A stretch of 14,799 nucleotides of DNA from Planctomycetota bacterium. GTDB lineage: Bacteria; Planctomycetota; UBA1135; GCA-002686595. The DNA lies in NCBI GenBank assembly GCA_029259575.1, contig JAJDEX010000248.1, forward strand, positions 1 to 14,799, written 5' to 3'. Below the pieces are notes generated by a model that was given only the letters and a program-made list of their open reading frames with translations, was not told the origin of the DNA and did not search any database. Shown piece by piece: positions 6,348 to 14,799 of this stretch (position 1 is the stretch's first letter; every line of letters begins with the position of its first letter). A program made the translations under genes and the position numbers.

Positions 6348-7820
6348 CTAGGCCAAGCGCCGGGCACCCGCCGCGATACGCGCGAGCGATGCTTCGAAGC
6401 CCAGCAGGTCGAGCGTCTGGAACAGGTCCGGACCACCGGGCTGTCCGGTCAGGGCACAACGCAACGGCTGGAAGAGGTCCGGGATCTTGGCGTCGTGCTC
6501 TTGCACCCAGGCTTTGGTCGCTTCGCCGAGTTCCAGGGCATCCCCGATCGATCCGCGTTCTTTCAGCCAGCCGGCGTAGGCCTCGAGCAGTTCGACGCGA
6601 CGGTCACGCTTGCGCGCTCCCTTCTCGGCCTTGGGGTCGTACACGACGGCATCGTCCGCGACGAAGAAGTGACCGATCCATGCGGGTAGATCGGCGTACA
6701 GGTTCAGGCGCTCCTGGACCGAAACGACGACGCGCTCGAACCACGCGCGACGGTCGGCGATCTGGTCGGCGGTCAGCAGTCCGGCTTCGATCACGAACGG
6801 CGCGGTGTGCTCGACGAGTTCGGCCGGGGACTCCTGGCGCAGGTACTCGCCGGCGAGCCAACCGAACTTGTCCATGTCGAAGACCGCGCCGGCCTTCGAC
6901 ACGTCCGTGGCCTCGAAGTTCTGGACGAGTTGCTCCATCGAGAACACCTCGGTCTCGCCATCGAGCGCCCAGCCCTGCAACGCGAGGAAGTTCAAGATCG
7001 CCGCTTTGGGATACCCGTTCGCGCGATAGTCCCCCAACGACGTGTCCCCGGTGCGCTTGCTCAACTTCTTGCGATCCTTGCCGAGCATCAACGGCAGGTG
7101 CCCGAAGTCCGGCGCTTCGAGCCCGAGCACGCTGTACAGCAGGATCTGCTTGGGTGTGTTGGTCAGGTGCTCTTCGCCGCGCAGGACGTGGCTGATCTGC
7201 ATGTCGATGTCGTCGCACACGACGACGAAGTTGTAGGTCGGGTTGCCGCCCCCGCGACGCACCAGCACCCAATCGTCGATCTCGGCGTTCGGGAAGGTCA
7301 CGTCCCCGCGCACGAGGTCGGTGAACGACGTCTCGCCGTCCGGGATGCGGAAGCGCAACGCGAACTCCTCGCCGGCATCCGCGCGCCGCTGGCTCTCGGC
7401 CGCATCCAGGTCACGATCCTCGCCGCGGTAGGCCACCATCTGCTTGCGGGCCTCCTGTTCGGCGCGCCATGCATCCAGTTGTTCGGGCGTCGAGAAGTCG
7501 CGGTAGGCCACGCCCATCTCGAGCAGCTTCTGGGCCGTCGCGCGGTGACCGTCCACCCGCTCGCTCTGCATGTAGGGCACGTGCGGACCGCCGATGTCGG
7601 GACCCTCGTCCCAATCGAGACCGAGCCAGCGCAGACCCTCGAGGATCGCGTCGAGCGATTCCTGGGTGCTGCGGCCCGCATCCGTGTCCTCGATGCGCAG
7701 CACGAACGTGCCTTCGTGGCCGCGGGCGAACGCCCAGTTGAAGAGAGCGGTGCGGCACAGACCGAGGTGAACGGTGCCGGTGGGACTGGGGGCGATGCGG
7801 ACGCGGACGGGACGGGACAC
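6348..7820 (-). CDS. gltX: Glutamate--tRNA ligase (glutamyl-tRNA synthetase), 490 aa.
   Basis: GTG start at 7820-7818 (MSRPVRVRIAPSPTGTVHLG) with GAGGAG at a 7-nt spacing. Class I HIGH motif (PSPTGTVHLGLCRTALFNWAFAR) and KMSKS-type motif (KKLSKR). Overall GluRS collinearity (IEDTDAGRS, NPTYNFVVVCDDIDMQISHVLRGEEH). Confidence 0.9.
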   Translation of the reverse strand: MSRPVRVRIAPSPTGTVHLGLCRTALFNWAFARGHEGTFVLRIEDTDAGRSTQESLDAILEGLRWLGLDWDEGPDIGGPHVPYMQSERVDGHRATAQKLLEMGVAYRDFSTPEQLDAWRAEQEARKQMVAYRGEDRDLDAAESQRRADAGEEFALRFRIPDGETSFTDLVRGDVTFPNAEIDDWVLVRRGGGNPTYNFVVVCDDIDMQISHVLRGEEHLTNTPKQILLYSVLGLEAPDFGHLPLMLGKDRKKLSKRTGDTSLGDYRANGYPKAAILNFLALQGWALDGETEVFSMEQLVQNFEATDVSKAGAVFDMDKFGWLAGEYLRQESPAELVEHTAPFVIEAGLLTADQIADRRAWFERVVVSVQERLNLYADLPAWIGHFFVADDAVVYDPKAEKGARKRDRRVELLEAYAGWLKERGSIGDALELGEATKAWVQEHDAKIPDLFQPLRCALTGQPGGPDLFQTLDLLGFEASLARIAAGARRLA

Positions 7821-7955: not shown

Positions 7956-9059
7956 ATGTCCAACACGTCCCTCACCCCCGACTTCGTCCGCACGCTCCCC
8001 AAGGTCAGCCTCCACGACCACCTCGATGGCAGTCTGCGCCCCATCTCCGTGCTCGAGTTGGCCAAGCAGCAGGGTTACGAGGGCCTGCCGGAGAGCGACC
8101 CCGATGCTCTGGGCGAGTGGTTCCGACGCGGCGCGAATCGGGGCAGCTTGGCGGAGTACCTCGAAGGTTTCGCCCACACGATCGCCGTGATGCAGACGAC
8201 GGAAGCGCTCGAGCGCGTCGCCTACGAGTACATCGAGGACATGCACGCCGACGGCATCGTCTACGCCGAGGTGCGCTTCGCCCCGCACTTCCACACCGAG
8301 GGCGGCCTGGGCCTCGACTCGGTCATGGATGCGGTGATCAAGGGCCTCGAGCGCGGGCGCGCCGAGTACAAGGTCGAATTCGGCGTCATCGTCTGCGCGC
8401 TGCGCAACCAGCCCGCGGAACTTTCGCTCAGCCTCGCTGAACTCGCCGTCGCCTGGTTCGGCCGCGGCGTCTGTGGCTTCGACCTCGCCGGCGAGGAAGC
8501 CGGACACCCGCCCAAGCATCACCTCGACGCGTTCCAGTACATCAAGCGCCACAACGGCTCGATCACGATCCACGCCGGCGAAGGATTCGGCCCCGAGAGC
8601 ATCTGGCAGGCGCTGCAGTTCTGCGGCACGCATCGCATCGGTCACGGCACGCGCCTGGTCGAGGACATCGCCGTCTACGAGGGCAAGGTCATCCGCCTCG
8701 GCAGCCTGGCGAGTTACGTGCTGGACCATCGCGTCCCGCTCGAGATCTGCCTCTCGTCGAACGTCCAGACGGGCGCGACGCCCTCCATGCAGGAGCACCC
8801 GTTCCCCACGTTCCTGGGCCTCGGCATGCGCGTCACGCTCAACACCGACAACCGTCTGATGAGCGGCGTGACGCTGACCGACGAGTACATGCTGGCGCAC
8901 AAGGAATTCGGTCTGGGCCTGCAAGCGATGGAGCGCGTGACCGTCAACGGCATCAACGCGGCCTTCTTCCGCTACAAGGACCGCGATCGGGTGCTCAAGG
9001 ACGTGATCCTGCCCGGCTACGCGGCCGCGCGCGAGGAACTGGGCATCGCGCCTTACTGA
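7956..9059 (+). CDS. add: Adenosine deaminase, 367 aa.
   Basis: ATG at 7956 (MSNTSLTPDFVRTLPKVSLHDHLDGSLRP), matching the ADA metal-binding H.HLDG..RP motif. Other matches: IVYAEVRFAPHFH, HAGE, and the C-terminal VTLNTDNRL (SLNTDD-like). GAGG lies 2 nt upstream, a short spacing. The 750-aa ORF in the track is a chimera with antisense gltX. Confidence 0.9.
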   Translation: MSNTSLTPDFVRTLPKVSLHDHLDGSLRPISVLELAKQQGYEGLPESDPDALGEWFRRGANRGSLAEYLEGFAHTIAVMQTTEALERVAYEYIEDMHADGIVYAEVRFAPHFHTEGGLGLDSVMDAVIKGLERGRAEYKVEFGVIVCALRNQPAELSLSLAELAVAWFGRGVCGFDLAGEEAGHPPKHHLDAFQYIKRHNGSITIHAGEGFGPESIWQALQFCGTHRIGHGTRLVEDIAVYEGKVIRLGSLASYVLDHRVPLEICLSSNVQTGATPSMQEHPFPTFLGLGMRVTLNTDNRLMSGVTLTDEYMLAHKEFGLGLQAMERVTVNGINAAFFRYKDRDRVLKDVILPGYAAAREELGIAPY

Positions 9060-9106: not shown

Positions 9107-10123
9107 ATGAACGAGATGCGCCTGCACGATCCCGAGGCCTTCGCCGGCCGCGTCGAGATTCGCACGATCGAGAGCTCGTTGCTCAAGGGCAACCCGCTGG
9201 GCGATCCGCACCGCCGGGACGTGCCGGTCTACGTCCCGCCCGGTGAGGCGCGCGACCTGCCCGTCGTGTTCGTGCTGACCGGCTACACGGGCCGCGGCCA
9301 GTCGCTCCTGGAATCGCATCCTTGGAAGGCGAGCGTCGCGCTGCAGTACGACCGTTTGGTCGCCACCGACAAGGCACCGCCGGTGCTGCTCGTGTTCCCC
9401 GATTGCTTCACGCGTTTGGGCGGCAGCCAGTACGTGAACAGCTCGGCGGTCGGTCTCTACGAGGACCACGTCGTGGAAGAACTCGTCCCGTTCGTCGATG
9501 CGCACTGGTCGACGCAATCCGGAGGCCGCGGCGTCTGCGGCAAGAGCTCCGGCGGCTTCGGCGCCCTGCACCTCGGCATGCATCACCCGGACACGTTTCA
9601 CGCCGTCGCGTCGATCAGCGGCGACTGCGCGTTCGAACACGGCTATGCGCACGACTTCCTGCCGGCCTGTCGCGGCCTGCTCGAGCACGGCGGCGACCCC
9701 CAGGCGTTCCTGACCAAGTTCGAGACCGATCACAAGCTGAAGGGCGACGGCCACGCGGTGATCTCGCTGCTGGCGATGGCGGCGTGCTACTCGCCGAACC
9801 CGATCGCGCCGTTGGGCTTCGACCTGCCGGTGAACCTCGAGACCGGGGAACGCATCAAGGACGTGTGGGACCGTTGGCTGCGCTTCGACCCGGTCGTCGC
9901 GGCGGCGGCGCACGTCGATGCGTTGAAGAGCCTGAAACTGCTGCACCTCGAAGCCGGCAAGCGTGACGAATTCCACCTGCAATTCGGCCTGCGGATCCTG
10001 GTGCGCAAGCTGAAGGAGCTGGGCGTCCCCCACGACCACGAGGAGTTCGAGGGCGGCCATTTCGACATCAACCACCGCTATCTCGGGGTCATCCCCAAGC
10101 TGGTGGCAGCCCTCCGGGGCTGA
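9107..10123 (+). CDS. Alpha/beta-hydrolase esterase (putative esterase / esterase-D-like family), ~338 aa.
   Basis: GxSxG nucleophile elbow GKSSGGFGAL, PVVFVLTGYTGRG, and the C-terminal HDHEEFEGGHFDINHRY (His of the triad). Start is ambiguous: TTG 9098, ATG 9107 or ATG 9116. There is no clear SD. Confidence 0.7.
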   Translation: MNEMRLHDPEAFAGRVEIRTIESSLLKGNPLGDPHRRDVPVYVPPGEARDLPVVFVLTGYTGRGQSLLESHPWKASVALQYDRLVATDKAPPVLLVFPDCFTRLGGSQYVNSSAVGLYEDHVVEELVPFVDAHWSTQSGGRGVCGKSSGGFGALHLGMHHPDTFHAVASISGDCAFEHGYAHDFLPACRGLLEHGGDPQAFLTKFETDHKLKGDGHAVISLLAMAACYSPNPIAPLGFDLPVNLETGERIKDVWDRWLRFDPVVAAAAHVDALKSLKLLHLEAGKRDEFHLQFGLRILVRKLKELGVPHDHEEFEGGHFDINHRYLGVIPKLVAALRG

Positions 10124-10301
10124 TCCCGTCGGTTCCATCGCCCCCGTGGGCGAAAACGCCGCAAGAACCGACCGCAGGATCTCCGGAAGGGATGAATAGC
10201 CCCGGGTCGAATCGGTAGCTTAGGCACCGTCGCTCGAACCCTGTCACCCTCGACCCCCCGAGGTGGCTGCCCCCGACCCGCGAGCGTCCGGAGACTGACC
10301 T

Positions 10302-10865
10302 ATGGGATTCCTGCCTGACGAGTGGACGCTGAGAACGACCTATATGGTCCTAGGTGCCGCCGGCGGTGCCATCTTGAGCATCCAGATGGTCCTGATGCTG
10401 ATCGGCGTCGACGGCGAAGGTGACTTCGATGCTGATGGCGACTTCGATCCGGGTAGCGACGGGATGGGACTGCTCTCCATCCGCGGCGTCGCCAGCTTCC
10501 TGACCTTCTTCGGCCTCGTCGGATGGTACGGACTCGAGAACGGCTGGTCGGCGGCCAAGTCGTCGATGGTCGGCCTGGCCGCCGGCTCCGCGATGATGCT
10601 GTTGGTCGCGTTCATCATGACGCAGTACCGCAAGCTCGCGTCCGAAGGCAACCTCGACCCGGGCAACGCCGTCGGTACGACGGCCTCGGTCTACCTGAAG
10701 ATCCCGGGCAACAACTCGGGTCGCGGGAAGATCACCGTGTCCATCCAGGACCGGACGCACGAATATCAAGCCACCACCAAAGGTCCGGAGATCCAGACGG
10801 GCTCCGAGGTTCGCGTGGTGCGCATGATCACCGAGAACACGTTCGAGGTGGAGGCGATCTCGTAG
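10302..10865 (+). CDS. nfeD: NfeD-family short membrane protein (YuaF/YqiJ-like): 3 TM helices plus a C-terminal OB-fold beta-barrel. It is the usual partner encoded upstream of flotillin.
   Basis: ATG at 10302 with GGAGA at a 7-nt spacing. TMs: YMVLGAAGGAILSIQMVLMLIGV, LLSIRGVASFLTFFGLVGWYGL, MVGLAAGSAMMLLVAFIMTQY. C-terminal OB-fold signature: GTTASVYLKIPGNNSGRGKITVSIQDRTHEYQATTKGPEIQTGSEVRVVRMITENTFEVEAI. It lies immediately upstream of an SPFH/flotillin gene. Confidence 0.8.
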   Translation: MGFLPDEWTLRTTYMVLGAAGGAILSIQMVLMLIGVDGEGDFDADGDFDPGSDGMGLLSIRGVASFLTFFGLVGWYGLENGWSAAKSSMVGLAAGSAMMLLVAFIMTQYRKLASEGNLDPGNAVGTTASVYLKIPGNNSGRGKITVSIQDRTHEYQATTKGPEIQTGSEVRVVRMITENTFEVEAIS

Positions 10866-11050: not shown

Positions 11051-12679
11051 TTGCTACAGACAATGCTCCCTCTCGCCGTGATTCAAGACGGCATCATGGA
11101 CGGGGACGCCGCGATGGTCTTCATCGTCCTCGCCATCGTTCTGGTCCTTGCGGGCTTCATGCTCATCCTGGCGCGTCGCTACAAGCGCTGCCCCTCGAAC
11201 AAGATCCTGGTCGTCTACGGACGTACCGCGAAAGGTCAGTCCGCGAAGCCCATCCACGGTGGTGGCACGTTCGTCTGGCCGCTGATCCAGAACTTCGACT
11301 ACCTCGCGCTGGATCCGATGCAGATCGAGATCCCGCTCGAGGGCGCGCTGTCCCTCGAGAACATTCGAGTCAGCGTTCCGTCGGCGTTCACCGTCGCGGT
11401 CGGCACCGAGAAGGAGGTCATGACCAACGCGGCCGTGCGTCTCTTGTCGCTGTCGCGCGGCGAGATCATCAAGCAGGCCGAGGACATCATCTTCGGTCAG
11501 TTGCGCCAGGTCATCGCCTCGATGCGGATCGAGGAGATCAACCGGGATCGCGACGTGTTCCTCAGCCGGGTCCAGAGCTCGCTCGAGCCCGAACTGGCGA
11601 AGATCGGCCTCGTGCTGATCAACGTGAACATCAAGGACATCACGGACGAGTCGGGTTACCTCGAGGCCATCGGTCGCAAGGCGGCCTCCGAGGCCATCAA
11701 CCAGGCCGAGATCGACGTGGCGCAGCAGAACCAGCGCGGCGCCATCGGTGTCTCCGAGGCCGAGAAGGAGCGCGCGATCCAGGTCGCCGAGCGCGAGAAG
11801 ACGCGAGACATCGGCACCAAGACCGCCGAGCGCGAGCGCGCCGTCCGCTTGGCCGAACTCGACAAGGAACGCGTCATCGGCGAGCAGACGTCGCAGTTCG
11901 AACAGGAGTCCCAGGTCCGTGACTCCGAACGCGAGATGCGGATCCGGGTCTCCGAGGCGAACGCCAAGGCCGTCACGGGTGAGAACGAGGCCAAGGCCAT
12001 CGTCGCCGCCACGAACGCCGACCTGAAGGTCCAGGAAGCCGACGCGTTCCAGCGTGGTGAGACGCGCCGTCGCGAGGCCGATGCCGCCGTCCGCGAAGCC
12101 CAGTACTTGGCCGAAGCCAAGGCGGCCGAGGCCGAGGGCAAGAAGAACGAGGCGCAGAAGCGCGCCGAGCTCGAGGCGTCCGCCAAGGCCGAGAAGGCCC
12201 AGACGATCGTCGACGCACAGGCGCAAGCCGAGAAAGCGCGCATCCTCGCCGAAGGTGAGGCGGCCGCATTGTTCGCCAAGCTCGAGGCTGAGGCGAAGGG
12301 TCAGTACGAGATCCTCGCCAAGAAGGGTATGGGTCTCAAGGAGATCGTCAACAGCTGTGGCGGCGCCGACAAGGCCTTCCAGATGTTGATGCTCGAGCAC
12401 ATCGACCACATCAGCGAAGTCGCCGCCAAGGCGATCAGCAACATCAAGTTCGACAAGGTCGTCGTCTGGGACGGGGGCAACTCTGGTTCCGGTGGCGGCG
12501 GCAAGTCGGGCACGGCCGGATTCCTCAGCAGCCTGGCGGGTTCGCTCCCGCCCGCGATGCAGATGATGAAGGACATCGGCGGCGTCGAGATGCCGGAGTT
12601 CTTCGGCAAGATGGTCTCGGACGCGAAGAAGGCCGAGGTCGTCGAGACCGAACAGGTCGAGGACGCGGCCTCCGAGTAG
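11051..12679 (+). CDS. floT: Flotillin-family SPFH/band-7 membrane scaffold protein (FloT/YuaG/YqiK-like), 542 aa.
   Basis: TTG at 11051 with AGGAGG (11039-11044) at a 6-nt spacing; the alternative ATG is at 11063. N-terminal TM anchor VFIVLAIVLVLAGFMLILARRYKR. The SPFH domain has the form KIL.VYGRT...PLIQNFDYLALDPMQIEIPLEGALS...VAVGTEK. It is followed by the long EA-rich coiled-coil flotillin region (AEREK, KAEAE repeats) and a Gly-rich C-terminal tail. The 606-aa antisense ORF over the same span is rejected. Confidence 0.9.
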   Translation: MLQTMLPLAVIQDGIMDGDAAMVFIVLAIVLVLAGFMLILARRYKRCPSNKILVVYGRTAKGQSAKPIHGGGTFVWPLIQNFDYLALDPMQIEIPLEGALSLENIRVSVPSAFTVAVGTEKEVMTNAAVRLLSLSRGEIIKQAEDIIFGQLRQVIASMRIEEINRDRDVFLSRVQSSLEPELAKIGLVLINVNIKDITDESGYLEAIGRKAASEAINQAEIDVAQQNQRGAIGVSEAEKERAIQVAEREKTRDIGTKTAERERAVRLAELDKERVIGEQTSQFEQESQVRDSEREMRIRVSEANAKAVTGENEAKAIVAATNADLKVQEADAFQRGETRRREADAAVREAQYLAEAKAAEAEGKKNEAQKRAELEASAKAEKAQTIVDAQAQAEKARILAEGEAAALFAKLEAEAKGQYEILAKKGMGLKEIVNSCGGADKAFQMLMLEHIDHISEVAAKAISNIKFDKVVVWDGGNSGSGGGGKSGTAGFLSSLAGSLPPAMQMMKDIGGVEMPEFFGKMVSDAKKAEVVETEQVEDAASE

Positions 12680-12699
12680 ACCTCGAGTGTTCCATGCGA

Positions 12700-12744
12700 A
12701 CCGCCGGGTCCCCCACGACGTGGGAGGCCCGGCGGTTTCGTATT
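12700..12744 (+). terminator. Putative intrinsic terminator of the nfeD-floT transcript.
   Basis: Located 21 nt after the floT TAG. GC-rich hairpin accgccgggtccccca / cgacg loop / tgggaggcccggcggt: a 16-bp stem with 1 mismatch and 1 G-U pair, followed by TTCGTATT. Confidence 0.5.
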
Positions 12745-12823
12745 CCGATGGTTGGCGGTACGGAGACGTGCGAACGAACCTGCGGGCCAAGACCGAACGG
12801 CCTCGCAGGTAGGGGGAGCCGCC

Positions 12824-12905
12824 CGACTTCAACCCGATCTCATCCGGCGGACCGATGGCGGCGTTCACCACCATTGGCCCGCCGGATGAGATCGGGTTGA
12901 AGTCG
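12824..12905. repeat. Large perfect inverted repeat: 27-bp arms (CGACTTCAACCCGATCTCATCCGGCGG ... CCGCCGGATGAGATCGGGTTGAAGTCG) separated by a 28-nt spacer that is itself partly self-complementary.
   Basis: Read directly: arm 1 at 12824-12850 and arm 2 at 12879-12905 are exact reverse complements. Imperfect complementarity continues ~9 bp further outward (ggagccgcc / cgtggctcc). The repeat creates the IGPPDEIGLKS peptide mirrored in two opposite-strand ORFs of the track. It lies in a 370-bp non-coding gap downstream of the floT terminator. Confidence 0.8.
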
Positions 12906-13049
12906 CGTGGCTCCGGATACCCGGGAAACTTGGGAATCGATGTCGGAGGTGGTGCATGGGCTGCACGTCAGTGGATGAGCCGGGCAGGATTTCGCGACAC
13001 GGTTCGCGATCGGCCAGGCCGCCATTCCACCACCTCACTCCCGAAACCC

Positions 13050-13445
13050 ATGTTCCCCATCTTCACGCTCATCGGCGGCCTGATCGCCGCCTCGCCCCTG
13101 ATCCTCGCACGCAAGCCAGGCGCCAAGGTGATCTTCGACAAGATCGCCCCCTACCAAGCGATCGTCGGCGCCGCGCTGTTCACGCTCGGCATCGTCTGGC
13201 TCGTGCGTTGGTTGCCCTTCGCGGGCAGCGCGTTCAGCTCGGTTCGCCTGATGCTGATCCCCGCCATGATCCTGGCGAACCTGGCCGTCGGCTTCGTGCT
13301 GGGTTTCGGCCTGATTCGCCGTGTCCTGGTCAAGAACGCAGCCTCCGCAGCGAAGGGTGACGCGCTCTTCGGCAAGCTGCAACGCGTTCAGGCACAGCTC
13401 GGCATCGCCACGGCCGGACTGGGTGCGATCTCCTTCGTGATCTGA
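13050..13445 (+). CDS. Small hypothetical integral membrane protein (~131 aa, about 4 TM helices) downstream of the flotillin locus.
   Basis: ATG at 13050 (MFPIFTLIGGLIAASPLIL...), with an alternative ATG at 12975. Four hydrophobic segments: IFTLIGGLIAASPLIL, AIVGAALFTLGIVWLV, LMLIPAMILANLAVGFVLGFGLI, LGIATAGLGAISFVI. Third-position GC is coding-like and the gene ends at a strong terminator. I recognise no family, and the 12855 start in the track would run through the inverted repeat. Confidence 0.5.
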   Translation: MFPIFTLIGGLIAASPLILARKPGAKVIFDKIAPYQAIVGAALFTLGIVWLVRWLPFAGSAFSSVRLMLIPAMILANLAVGFVLGFGLIRRVLVKNAASAAKGDALFGKLQRVQAQLGIATAGLGAISFVI

Positions 13446-13465
13446 TCGGTCCGCTGAAACACAAG

Positions 13466-13509
13466 AACCCCGCAGGGCCTCGGACGAGGTGCTGCGGGGC
13501 TTCTTCGTG
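13466..13509. terminator. Bidirectional intrinsic terminator between convergent genes (the membrane protein on plus, the kinase on minus).
   Basis: Hairpin ccccgcag-gg-cctcg-ga-cgagg-tg-ctgcgggg (8-bp outer stem plus 5-bp inner stem), followed by CTTCTTCGTG on the plus strand. On the minus strand it is followed by TTCTTGTGTTTCAG. It starts 21 nt after the membrane-protein TGA and 19 nt before the kinase stop at 13528. Confidence 0.6.
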
Positions 13510-13527
13510 CCTGTGGTCCAAGTCCCG

Positions 13528-14799
13528 CTAGTCGGATTCCGAGGACTCGGCGGCGCGCGCACGGTCGAGCATGCCGTCGATCACGCCCAAATTGGGATGC
13601 TCCGGACCTAACAACTGCTCGAAGCGGCTCCGACTCCGTTCGAGGGCGTCGATCGCGGTCCGATACTCCCCGAGGTGGATCCGCGTCTCCCCCAGGTGCG
13701 CGAGCGACTTGGCCGACATCCTCTCGTTGCCCACCGCCTCGAACGTCGTGAGGGCGGCCTCGAATTCGTCGCGAGCCTCCTTGTACCGGCTCAGCCCGTA
13801 CAGGCACTGGCCACGCAAGTAGCGGCCGAGCGCCACGTCCCCGTGCCCCGTGCCGAAGTTCCAGCGGTCGATCTCGAGTGCCGCGTCGGTCACCTCGAGG
13901 GCCTCGGCGAACTGCCCAGCCTCGAACAGGAGCCGGGACTCGATCGTCAGGAAACCGCTCAACACACCATCGTGTTCGAGGTTGCGTCCGCGGGCCTCTT
14001 CGGCCCCCGAGCGGATGAGCGTCAACCGCTCCCCCAAGGTCCTCCCCATCATCGGCGACAGCGCCCAGGCCTGGATCGCCTCGAGTCGAAGCGCGTCACC
14101 CGGCGGCAAGTGCTCGCGCACGAAAGTGTGGGCCTCGGTGAGGTCGCGCACGTGCTCTTCGACGTTGCCGAGCTGCATGTGAATGGCGAGCCGAGTGTTC
14201 AGCAATCGCGCGCGGATGCGTTCGCCCCCGGTCACGTTGGCCGGCAGCTCGGCGAGCCCTCGATCGGCCCAGATCAGGGCCTCGTCGAGCTCGAAGACAC
14301 GCGTGAGTACGGTCGCGATCTCGGCGATCACTTCGACCCGGAAGATGCGGTTCTCCGGCAGGTCGCCGAGCTGTTCGAGGATCAGGTGCAGCTCTTGCAG
14401 CGCCCTCTCGTGGCGCTCGTCCGCAGCCATCTCGCGTGCACGGTTCAACGTCCCTGCGAGGGTCGTGAGCAGTTCGGCCTCCCGCTCCTCGACGGCGAGG
14501 TCCAGACGTTCGGCCTTCTCGATCGTCGAGAGGAGCTCCGATTCTCGTTCCTCGACGACACGATCGGAACGCAAGGCCCAGGCCCCTGCGCCGAGACTCA
14601 AGACGAGCGCCATCAGCGCCGCGGCCTGCCAGGGATTGCGCCTGCCGCGACGCACCATCCGCCCGACGAGCCCCGTGCGGCGCGCCAGGATCGGGAAGCC
14701 CGCCAGGTGTCGCTCCAGGTCCTCGGCCAATGCGGTCGCACTCTCGTAACGCTCGGCCGGCCGCTTGGCCATGCAGGTCGCGACGATCGTATCCAGGTC
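13528..14799 (-). CDS. Ser/Thr protein kinase, partial (the C-terminal part is in the window): end of the kinase domain, one TM helix, and an extracytoplasmic TPR-repeat domain. The 5' part lies beyond the window end.
   Basis: Translation of the last window bases continues the frame (..LDTIVATCMAKRPAERYESATALAEDLERHL), the typical end of a Hanks-type kinase catalytic domain. Then comes a juxtamembrane R-rich stretch and the TM helix WQAAALMALVLSLGAGAWAL. The long helical repeat region has TPR-like periodicity (LGRYLRGQCLYGLSRYKEARDEFEAAL, LAHLGETRIHLGEYRTAIDALERS). Confidence 0.7.
   Translation of the reverse strand, partial: DLDTIVATCMAKRPAERYESATALAEDLERHLAGFPILARRTGLVGRMVRRGRRNPWQAAALMALVLSLGAGAWALRSDRVVEERESELLSTIEKAERLDLAVEEREAELLTTLAGTLNRAREMAADERHERALQELHLILEQLGDLPENRIFRVEVIAEIATVLTRVFELDEALIWADRGLAELPANVTGGERIRARLLNTRLAIHMQLGNVEEHVRDLTEAHTFVREHLPPGDALRLEAIQAWALSPMMGRTLGERLTLIRSGAEEARGRNLEHDGVLSGFLTIESRLLFEAGQFAEALEVTDAALEIDRWNFGTGHGDVALGRYLRGQCLYGLSRYKEARDEFEAALTTFEAVGNERMSAKSLAHLGETRIHLGEYRTAIDALERSRSRFEQLLGPEHPNLGVIDGMLDRARAAESSESD

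Follow-up and report, generated by a model that had tools for sequence, protein, structure and literature searches.

The question raised by this locus is what an unusually long inverted repeat, perfect in its core and imperfect on either side, represents in the intergenic region that follows a flotillin gene, and whether it acts there as a mobile repeat, as an RNA structure, as a site recognised on folded DNA or without any dedicated function. The window (the whole stretch of DNA that was analysed, 14,799 bases with a G+C content of 67%) contains the following parts of the repeat.

12803 to 12823, no strand: outer left imperfect stem extension, with 14 of 21 Watson-Crick pairs and one G.T pair to 12906 to 12926
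12824 to 12850, no strand: left perfect arm of 27 nt, exact reverse complement of 12879 to 12905
12851 to 12878, no strand: spacer of 28 nt, with an imperfect inner stem (8 of 11 Watson-Crick pairs) and a 6-nt loop, as given by the repeat finder and the folds
12879 to 12905, no strand: right perfect arm of 27 nt, exact reverse complement of 12824 to 12850
12906 to 12926, no strand: outer right imperfect stem extension, pairing with 12803 to 12823

The scan for exact repeats agreed with the original prediction that the two 27-nt arms, of which the left one reads CGACTTCAACCCGATCTCATCCGGCGG, are exact reverse complements with 28 nt between them, and no other exact inverted repeat of at least 12 nt with a spacer of up to 200 nt was found in an exhaustive scan of the whole window. 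From the base composition of the window, chance alone should yield about 3e-9 such 27-nt repeats, and none of 200 shuffles reproduced the arm match. The pairing had also been proposed to continue outward, and it does so as far as 12803 and 12926: the repeat finder returned a whole imperfect inverted repeat of 124 bases, with 59-nt arms (12803-12861 and 12868-12926) around a 6-nt loop, which are 83% complementary (49 of 59 Watson-Crick pairs and two G.T). Pairing exceeds chance in the outer flank (P=2.5e-4) as well as in the inner one (P=2.6e-3). The spacer was likewise predicted to be foldable, and an inner stem does exist, with one G.U and two C.A mismatches on the + strand, and the right half of the spacer reads CACCACCATTGG and not cgccaccattgg as had been given. 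The element is thus real and not a product of chance.

Analysis of the mismatches revealed that all 10 of the stem are located in the flanks, the core being paired at 27 of 27 positions as compared to 22 of 32 in the flanks. When 10 mismatches were placed at random, a run of at least 27 pairs was left in only 1.1% of trials (P=0.011), which indicates that the core has a history different from that of its flanks. The mismatch-free core within degenerate flanks is consistent with the recent origin that the perfect match had been taken to imply. Furthermore, the 27-bp core is purely Watson-Crick with zero G.U pairs, and of the pairs outside the central loop 11 are not Watson-Crick, with G.U numbering two if the + strand were transcribed and four for the - strand, so that the strand bias in wobble pairs expected of RNA-level selection is absent.

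The genes and hairpins that surround the repeat are listed below.

10302 to 10865: NfeD-like gene, upstream of floT
11051 to 12679, + strand: flotillin gene floT (SPFH/Band_7; Pfam PF01145, E=1.3e-26), upstream of the long hairpin
12699 to 12737, + strand: terminator-like GC-rich hairpin of floT, with 19-nt arms that are 89% complementary, 20 nt past the stop codon and followed by TTTCGTATT
13050 to 13445, + strand: gene of a near-orphan predicted membrane protein of 131 aa, called at this length in L001 and L047 and with coding-like codon-position GC
13462 to 13505: smaller hairpin after the 131-aa gene
next after the hairpin at 13462 to 13505: kinase-TPR gene, convergent

The product of floT has homologues in Planctomycetota that carry the name flotillin. 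The nearest named ones belong to Planctomycetota MAGs and to 'Planctomycetes bacterium Poly30' (72% identity), the strain that bears the name Saltatorellus ferox, a genus which the NCBI taxonomy places under Planctomycetia incertae sedis; the FloT cluster draws its members from marine assemblies of Tara, ENA and Logan. The small hairpin at 12699-12737 has a weak T-run and was not called by a strict terminator scan. Equivalent hairpins with 13-17-nt arms are nevertheless found about 20 nt past the floT stop codon in relatives (L039:11618-11655 and L045:11647-11682), indicating that the small hairpin occupies the usual terminator position of floT and that the long hairpin is an addition. In accordance with its predicted location after the floT terminator and about 145 bp before the next gene, the repeat ends 145 bp (perfect arm) or 124 bp (extended stem) upstream of the gene start at 13050. 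A consensus scan of 12400-13400 returned no promoter-like or terminator-like sites, a U-tract is absent beside the long hairpin on both strands (3' of the stem, the + strand reads AAACTTGGGA and the - strand GGCCGTTCGG), and neither a tRNA nor a tandem repeat is involved. The claim that the element is neither a simple terminator nor a typical operator stands, the hairpin being far too long and lacking a U-tract on either strand.

A coding role of the element was considered and rejected. The frames that cross 12803-12926 have GC values of about 0.6/0.65/0.65 at the three codon positions, as compared to 0.65/0.39/0.90 in floT and 0.63/0.45/0.87 in the 131-aa gene, that is, a GC3 of 0.65 against 0.87-0.90 in real genes; the pattern of real genes is also missing from the open reading frames at 12694-12900 (+ strand) and 12840-13025 (- strand) and from the in-frame extension at 12855-13049. 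The element is non-coding, as had been proposed. A 196-aa open reading frame (P0129), which some gene callers start at an ATG within the hairpin loop, is an over-extension of the 131-aa gene, since the three homologues of the latter have 130-135 aa and align along the entire 131-aa version and the GC of the extension is non-coding.

Comparison among assemblies showed that the hairpin is identical in eight independent assemblies of one marine Planctomycetota species (the window, L001, L002, L047-L050 and L058), which comprise an NCBI MAG, four ENA assemblies, two Logan assemblies and one Tara scaffold. The 370-bp spacer between the genes is 100% identical between the window and the seven others (ENA ERZ3421833, ERZ3421540, ERZ3421493 and ERZ3421850; Logan ERR2762123 and ERR2762118; and the Tara scaffold). 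Assembly errors can yield long perfect palindromes, and contigs of relatives do break at such sequences (L044 starts inside the palindrome of L043, and L053 ends at its own); yet the presence of the same hairpin with unique flanks on both sides in eight assemblies that differ in both pipeline and sample leaves a fold-back chimera with a practically negligible probability. The divergence of the strains from the window consists of a very low background with patches of dense differences (12000-12500, inside floT; 6500-6750; 10000-10250; and all positions beyond 13500), and many other 250-bp bins likewise have zero or one strain difference. Because divergence is so low and so patchy, the identity of the spacer is not evidence of constraint.

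Beyond the species, the situation is different for the gene and for the hairpin. The floT gene is a conserved, syntenic core gene and the nfeD-floT operon is conserved, while blastn found no homologue of the spacer in the nearest other relatives, whose FloT is 72-80% identical. The protein database contains no FloT between the cluster at 90% identity or above and 80% identity. The hairpin is species-specific and is absent from the relatives examined, those with 72-80% identical FloT. The gene that follows floT also varies: it is queF in L039, an ABC transporter followed by queF in L045, L046 and L062, a phosphatase in L043 and a glycoside hydrolase in L061. In the species of the window, floT and queF are separated by a block of about 7.6 kb with five genes, which encode the 131-aa protein, the kinase-TPR protein, an 810-aa protein, an ECF sigma factor and a 320-aa protein. 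With this block following floT, the hairpin stands at a boundary between conserved and variable DNA.

The 131-aa protein has only three distant homologues (130-135 aa, 41-49% identical), whose genes lie in other neighbourhoods, and none of the three is preceded by a related hairpin. This argues against the hairpin being a conserved 5' leader of the 131-aa gene, and the 5'-leader candidate of the original prediction found no support.

Copy number was assessed in several collections. In the JGI/Tara metagenome collection, an arm 20-mer matched a single locus, which is the orthologous Tara scaffold and carries both arms with the same spacing. In 596 Gb of species-representative genomes, the 36 places matched by an arm 18-mer are all single ones in unrelated taxa, none longer than 18-20 nt and none forming an inverted pair. 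These matches are chance ones, and the collection evidently lacks the source species, so that it is uninformative on the genome of the latter. The IMG/VR viral contigs gave two chance matches to the arm, and blastn found no match in plasmids and phages. These collection scans used exact 18-20-mers, which copies diverged by more than about 5-10% could escape. L063, the window and L047, which together span about 33 kb of contiguous DNA in this species, contained no second copy at blastn sensitivity, nor was a transposase or RAYT-like Pfam domain detected in them. No target-site duplication longer than 2 bp was found, the only matches being 2-bp chance ones at symmetric boundaries in 12796-12825. 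The element is therefore single-copy in the data searched and without the hallmarks of a mobile element.

These results bear on the proposal of a REP/MITE-like repeat, for which a search for multiple copies had been suggested as the check; the scans returned a single locus, and about 33 kb of the same genome held no second copy. REP and REPIN sequences are present in tens to hundreds of copies in a genome that also carries a RAYT (TnpA-REP) gene, and a REP unit is a compact stem-loop of 20-40 bp whose GTAG or CGTC tag is left unpaired, a REPIN being made of two units inverted with respect to each other. A relic of a mobile element, be it a MITE, a REP/REPIN-type repeat or the two terminal inverted repeats that an insertion sequence leaves after internal deletion, could account for the short core bounded by 27-bp perfect inverted termini, which resembles a minimal MITE of the Correia or ERIC type, and for the position at a synteny breakpoint. 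A GTAG tetranucleotide is also present at 12809-12812, and Planctomycetes have been reported to have GTAG-tagged REPs (PMC3733652). This GTAG, however, has no CTAC counterpart on the right, where the sequence is GGTATCC, and is paired in the fold; the two halves are not compact REP stem-loops; and pairing continues beyond the perfect arms, so that the flanks belong to the palindrome and not to a target site. As to what defines a MITE, terminal inverted repeats are present as the 27-nt perfect arms, and neither dispersed copies nor a parent insertion sequence with the same ends was found in the genome, metagenome, viral, plasmid and phage collections. The element also shares no sequence similarity with the other long hairpins of relatives described below. 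A multi-copy REP/MITE repeat was rejected for the single copy in the data searched, the absent target-site duplication and the lack of a transposase or RAYT-like domain in the 33 kb covered, and a mobile-element relic in the wider sense is very unlikely.

Predicted folding revealed an extremely stable structure on both strands: the minimum free energy of the RNA was -100.8 kcal/mol (z -11.0) for the + strand and -108.9 kcal/mol (z -12.7) for the - strand, and the element folded as single-stranded DNA at -53.8 kcal/mol (z -9.0). A scan of the entire window against Rfam 15 (E<=1) found no family at the gathering threshold and only sub-threshold lookalikes of miRNA precursors and snoRNAs, of which the top matches were MIR6457 (49.1 bits, threshold 140) and MIR9481 (29.8 bits, threshold 130). 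The miRNA-precursor matches reflect a generic resemblance to long hairpins, as any long hairpin gives, and the suggestion of a structured sRNA gained nothing from Rfam. Nor does the element offer any covariation, as the spacer is identical in all eight assemblies and cannot be aligned in the next relatives (FloT at most 80% identical).

The stability of the fold and its location between two co-directional genes nonetheless favour a functional RNA structure, in which the hairpin of about 120 nt would serve in the 3' UTR of floT or as an intercistronic structure, or as a regulatory 5' leader of the 131-aa gene. It could act as a secondary terminator or read-through insulator without a U-tract, as a block to 3' exonucleases, or as a processing site for RNase III, by which floT and the next gene would be uncoupled; a perfect duplex of at least 20 bp is a classical RNase III substrate. 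An intrinsic terminator consists of a GC-rich stem of about 5-20 bp with a loop of 3-8 nt and a U-tract directly 3' of it.

Additional evidence on this reading came from about 156 kb of the fetched loci of relatives, in which two further long perfect inverted repeats were found (L043 and L052), the second one with an orthologue.

L043, 1985 to 2093, with the outer repeat reaching 1966 and 2100: hairpin with 53-nt perfect arms and a 3-nt loop
L052, 6661 to 6774: hairpin with 20-nt perfect outer arms at 6661 to 6680 and 6755 to 6774
L053, 6723 to 6800: orthologue of the L052 hairpin, with inner arms perfect over at least 26 nt, up to the contig end

The L043 repeat (1966-2100) starts 10 nt past a stop codon and the L052 hairpin directly at one; from their ends to the next co-directional gene there are 58 nt and 59 nt, respectively. 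This placement favours an RNA-level role. Pairwise comparison of the window, L043 and L052 hairpins detected no similarity above shuffled controls, and only the orthologues of L052 and L053 are alike. The ordinary terminator-like hairpins of the lineage have 13-19-nt arms and mostly 3-16-nt loops. In 249 kb of control loci (chance matches from many phyla), three repeats with arms of at least 20 nt were found, two of them in Planctomycetes, numbers which are too small for a claim.

L053 comes from a close strain of L052, and the two hairpins differ by nine changes clustered in a right arm of about 26 nt and by two in the left arm. The changes jointly make the L053 arms perfect over at least 26 nt, whereas those of L052 are imperfect. 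They include one double change from C-G to A-T, which preserves a pair and counts in favour of an RNA structure. Clustered multi-nucleotide changes that raise complementarity are a signature of template switching. In accordance with this, Lavi et al. (2018; PMC5941160) concluded that imperfect inverted repeats in bacterial non-coding DNA preferentially become perfect via template switching, and proposed this process as the cause of the excess and persistence of perfect inverted repeats.

Several observations stand against an RNA function of the window element. The floT gene already has a terminator-like hairpin at a position conserved in relatives; the long hairpin has neither a U-tract on either side nor a promoter-like site nearby; no Rfam family reached threshold; the core lacks G.U pairs and the flanks lack a strand bias in wobble pairs; conservation ends at the species; and the homologues of the 131-aa gene are found without the hairpin. 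Taken together, a functional RNA structure is the main rival reading, possible and rather doubtful. That all three long hairpins lie just 3' of genes in co-directional pairs would also fit a functional class, and a broader form of the RNA reading would make the giant near-perfect hairpins of about 110-135 nt and unrelated sequence past stop codons (the window, L043:1966-2100 and L052/L053) members of a functional class of this lineage of Planctomycetota; we regard this as improbable. We give equally little credence to the further proposal that such a class would consist of terminators without U-tracts, insulators or RNase III sites, recognised by shape rather than by sequence and kept perfect by arm-to-arm conversion.

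The good fold as single-stranded DNA was also weighed as a sign of a site recognised by a protein on folded or cruciform DNA, such as a solitary attC-like site of an integron, a site for a recombinase or resolvase, or a partition site. The sequence CTTCAAC...GTTGAAG matches the R''/R' consensus (RYYYAAC / GTTRRRY) at six of seven positions in each box, and the length of 82-124 nt is within the attC range. Functional attC sites are, on the other hand, defined by extrahelical bases and an unpaired central spacer, and the stem found here is perfect over 27 bp and has neither. The outermost consensus position (the first or the last) fails on both sides, pairing runs about 20 nt past the putative R boxes, and a chance GTTRRR hexamer is expected in about 5-10% of 27-nt arms. 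Moreover, no integrase or attC array was found in the neighbourhood and no GTTRRRY after the 131-aa open reading frame, and floT is not a cassette. A folded-DNA recognition site is accordingly highly improbable.

The explanation favoured here, in which our confidence is about evenly divided, is that the element is a single-copy, species-specific, non-mobile extragenic quasi-palindrome, the core of which was homogenised by arm-to-arm copying and which has no sequence-specific function. An older palindrome with arms of about 59 nt may have arisen from an inverted duplication at a rearrangement-prone junction between the nfeD-floT operon and the lineage-specific gene block, and would have partly decayed in a neutral manner. 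The 27-bp tract would then have been recently re-homogenised at the DNA level, through an intramolecular template switch, in replication or repair, that used one arm to rewrite the other (quasi-palindrome correction). Homogenisation at the DNA level is suggested by the perfect, Watson-Crick-only core, the degenerate flanks and the lack of a strand bias in G.U pairs; what marks a quasi-palindrome of this kind, a sharply bounded perfect tract within an imperfect repeat, is present (P=0.011). If the spacer is transcribed, a very stable double-stranded RNA stem would form, and any hindrance of read-through or cleavage by RNase III would then be a by-product of the structure. An origin by template switching, for which the L052/L053 pair is the analogue, and the absence of a dedicated function are both inferred.

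Against the template-switch explanation, it may be argued that the window element is invariant in all eight assemblies, offering no strain polymorphism, and that conversion would be known by analogy only, its signature having been seen only in a different hairpin, that of L052 versus L053. The perfect core could equally be explained by strong constraint, through a protein that binds both arms or through an RNA function. Bacterial long palindromes are generally deletion-prone, and persistence in all strains could hint at a benefit, although the low and patchy divergence of the strains means that a short time was sampled. According to the original prediction, a single copy with neither conservation nor covariation in relatives, and with no associated transcript ends or coverage, would favour a chance or neutral palindrome, and the part of this that can be computed from sequence is what was found. 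Its description of the element as non-coding, together with the position and size, survived, its REP/MITE candidate failed, and its sRNA and 5'-leader candidates found no support.

As it stands, the element is a well-documented, unusually long single-copy extragenic palindrome of an uncultured marine planctomycete and has little significance. Extragenic quasi-palindromes are already known, and the example in the window is unusual mainly by its length. Such palindromes have practical consequences, as they break the assemblies of relatives (L044 and L053 end at palindromes) and mislead gene callers, as in P0129, the 196-aa open reading frame that starts in the loop. The L052/L053 pair provides a natural view of how a palindrome is homogenised between close strains. 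To our knowledge, planctomycete transcription signals are poorly known, and the significance would be greater if transcript mapping revealed giant hairpins as the terminators or insulators of the lineage.

Compared with known systems, the element shares with palindromic MITEs and REP-type repeats (Correia, ERIC, REP/REPIN and GTAG-tagged REPs; PMC3733652) its extragenic location just 3' of a gene, its size of about 80-125 nt, its long inverted arms and its hairpin-forming transcript, and differs in being single-copy, without a target-site duplication, a transposase or RAYT, or a shared sequence family; where REP/REPIN sequences form paired compact units, here one long hairpin at a single locus has its GTAG paired. 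Integron attC sites are alike in length range, in forming an imperfect palindrome that folds as single-stranded DNA and in R''/R' boxes similar to CTTCAAC/GTTGAAG, and unlike in the one consensus failure per box, the missing extrahelical bases, central spacer, integrase and array, and an upstream gene that is no cassette. With intrinsic terminators, including the U-tract-poor type of high-GC genomes, the element has in common a GC-rich stem-loop past a stop codon in a co-directional pair; its stem is 2-4 times that of the ordinary terminator-like hairpins of the lineage, has no U-tract and comes after a separate terminator-like hairpin, and nothing on planctomycete intrinsic terminators was found in the literature. 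The template-switch quasi-palindromes of E. coli and other Proteobacteria (PMC5941160) resemble the element in being non-coding and in having a perfect tract inside imperfect pairing, and the resemblance extends to the clustered, complementarity-raising changes of the L052/L053 orthologues. The arms studied by Lavi et al. (PMC5941160) were shorter than 20 bp, with a mean of 5.75 bp, as compared to 27 nt perfect and 59 nt overall in the window, and unlike in their system an arm-to-arm conversion event was not directly observed at this locus.

Comparison of the region between floT and the next gene (window 12680-13050) with five loci of floT-carrying relatives (L039, L045, L062, L043 and L061) revealed that synteny breaks 3' of floT, a position taken in the relatives by queF, by an ABC transporter gene or by others. 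In the relatives, a kinase/ECF-sigma block lies upstream of nfeD-floT, while in the window's species a kinase-TPR/ECF-sigma block is located downstream of nfeD-floT instead. The features of the window described below are:

12855-13445, plus strand, 196-aa open reading frame with its ATG start in the loop of the long hairpin, in the same frame as the 131-aa gene
13050-13445, plus strand, gene for a 131-aa predicted membrane protein
13462-13505, hairpin whose perfect arms of 14 nt enclose a loop of 16 nt
13500-14799, minus strand, 3' part of the kinase-TPR gene

The 196-aa open reading frame is recorded as a called protein (P0129; ENA/Tara). Its first 65 codons are non-coding, as shown by their codon-position GC and by homologue lengths of 130-135 aa. 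No Pfam domain was found in the 131-aa predicted membrane protein, and only three homologues, 41-49% identical and located in unrelated gene neighbourhoods, were detected among 5.8 billion clustered proteins. The small hairpin at 13462-13505, which separates the convergent 131-aa and kinase-TPR genes, is probably a bidirectional terminator, and its size is typical of the ordinary post-gene hairpins of this lineage.

Comparison with seven other assemblies of the species (L001, L002, L047-L050 and L058) showed 48-60 differences per 250 bp (~22%) at 13500-14799, whereas the rest of the window was ~99% identical to the same strains. This jump in divergence is abrupt and close to the end of the 131-aa gene, and the segment 13500-14799 appears to carry an allele of the Ser/Thr kinase TPR domain that is hypervariable or has been replaced. 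Elsewhere, the strain comparison revealed dense patches of differences against a near-zero background at 1500-1750, 6500-6750, 8250-8500, 10000-10250 and, within floT, 12000-12500, a pattern that suggests imported recombination tracts. Approximately 25 of the 26 strain differences in floT fell inside 12000-12500; despite these, the FloT protein was reported to be 100% identical between strains, and thus the nucleotide differences are essentially all synonymous.

Long palindromes were also present in relatives:

L043:1966-2100 (GCA_039821985.1, contig JBCBNC010000017.1), palindrome with 53-nt perfect arms, a 3-nt loop and a 22-nt outer repeat
L052:6661-6774 and L053:6723-6800, orthologous long hairpins of two close strains

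The L043 palindrome lies between a peptidase M48 gene and the gene for a 590-aa protein, and its sequence is not related to that of the window hairpin. L044, a Logan assembly made independently, starts within the L043 palindrome. The L053 contig ends exactly at its palindrome. In the orthologous pair, the hairpin state differs by strain, with perfect outer arms in L052 and perfect inner arms in L053. The changes between the two are clustered and render the L053 arms exactly complementary, and the pair looks like a natural case of palindrome homogenisation.
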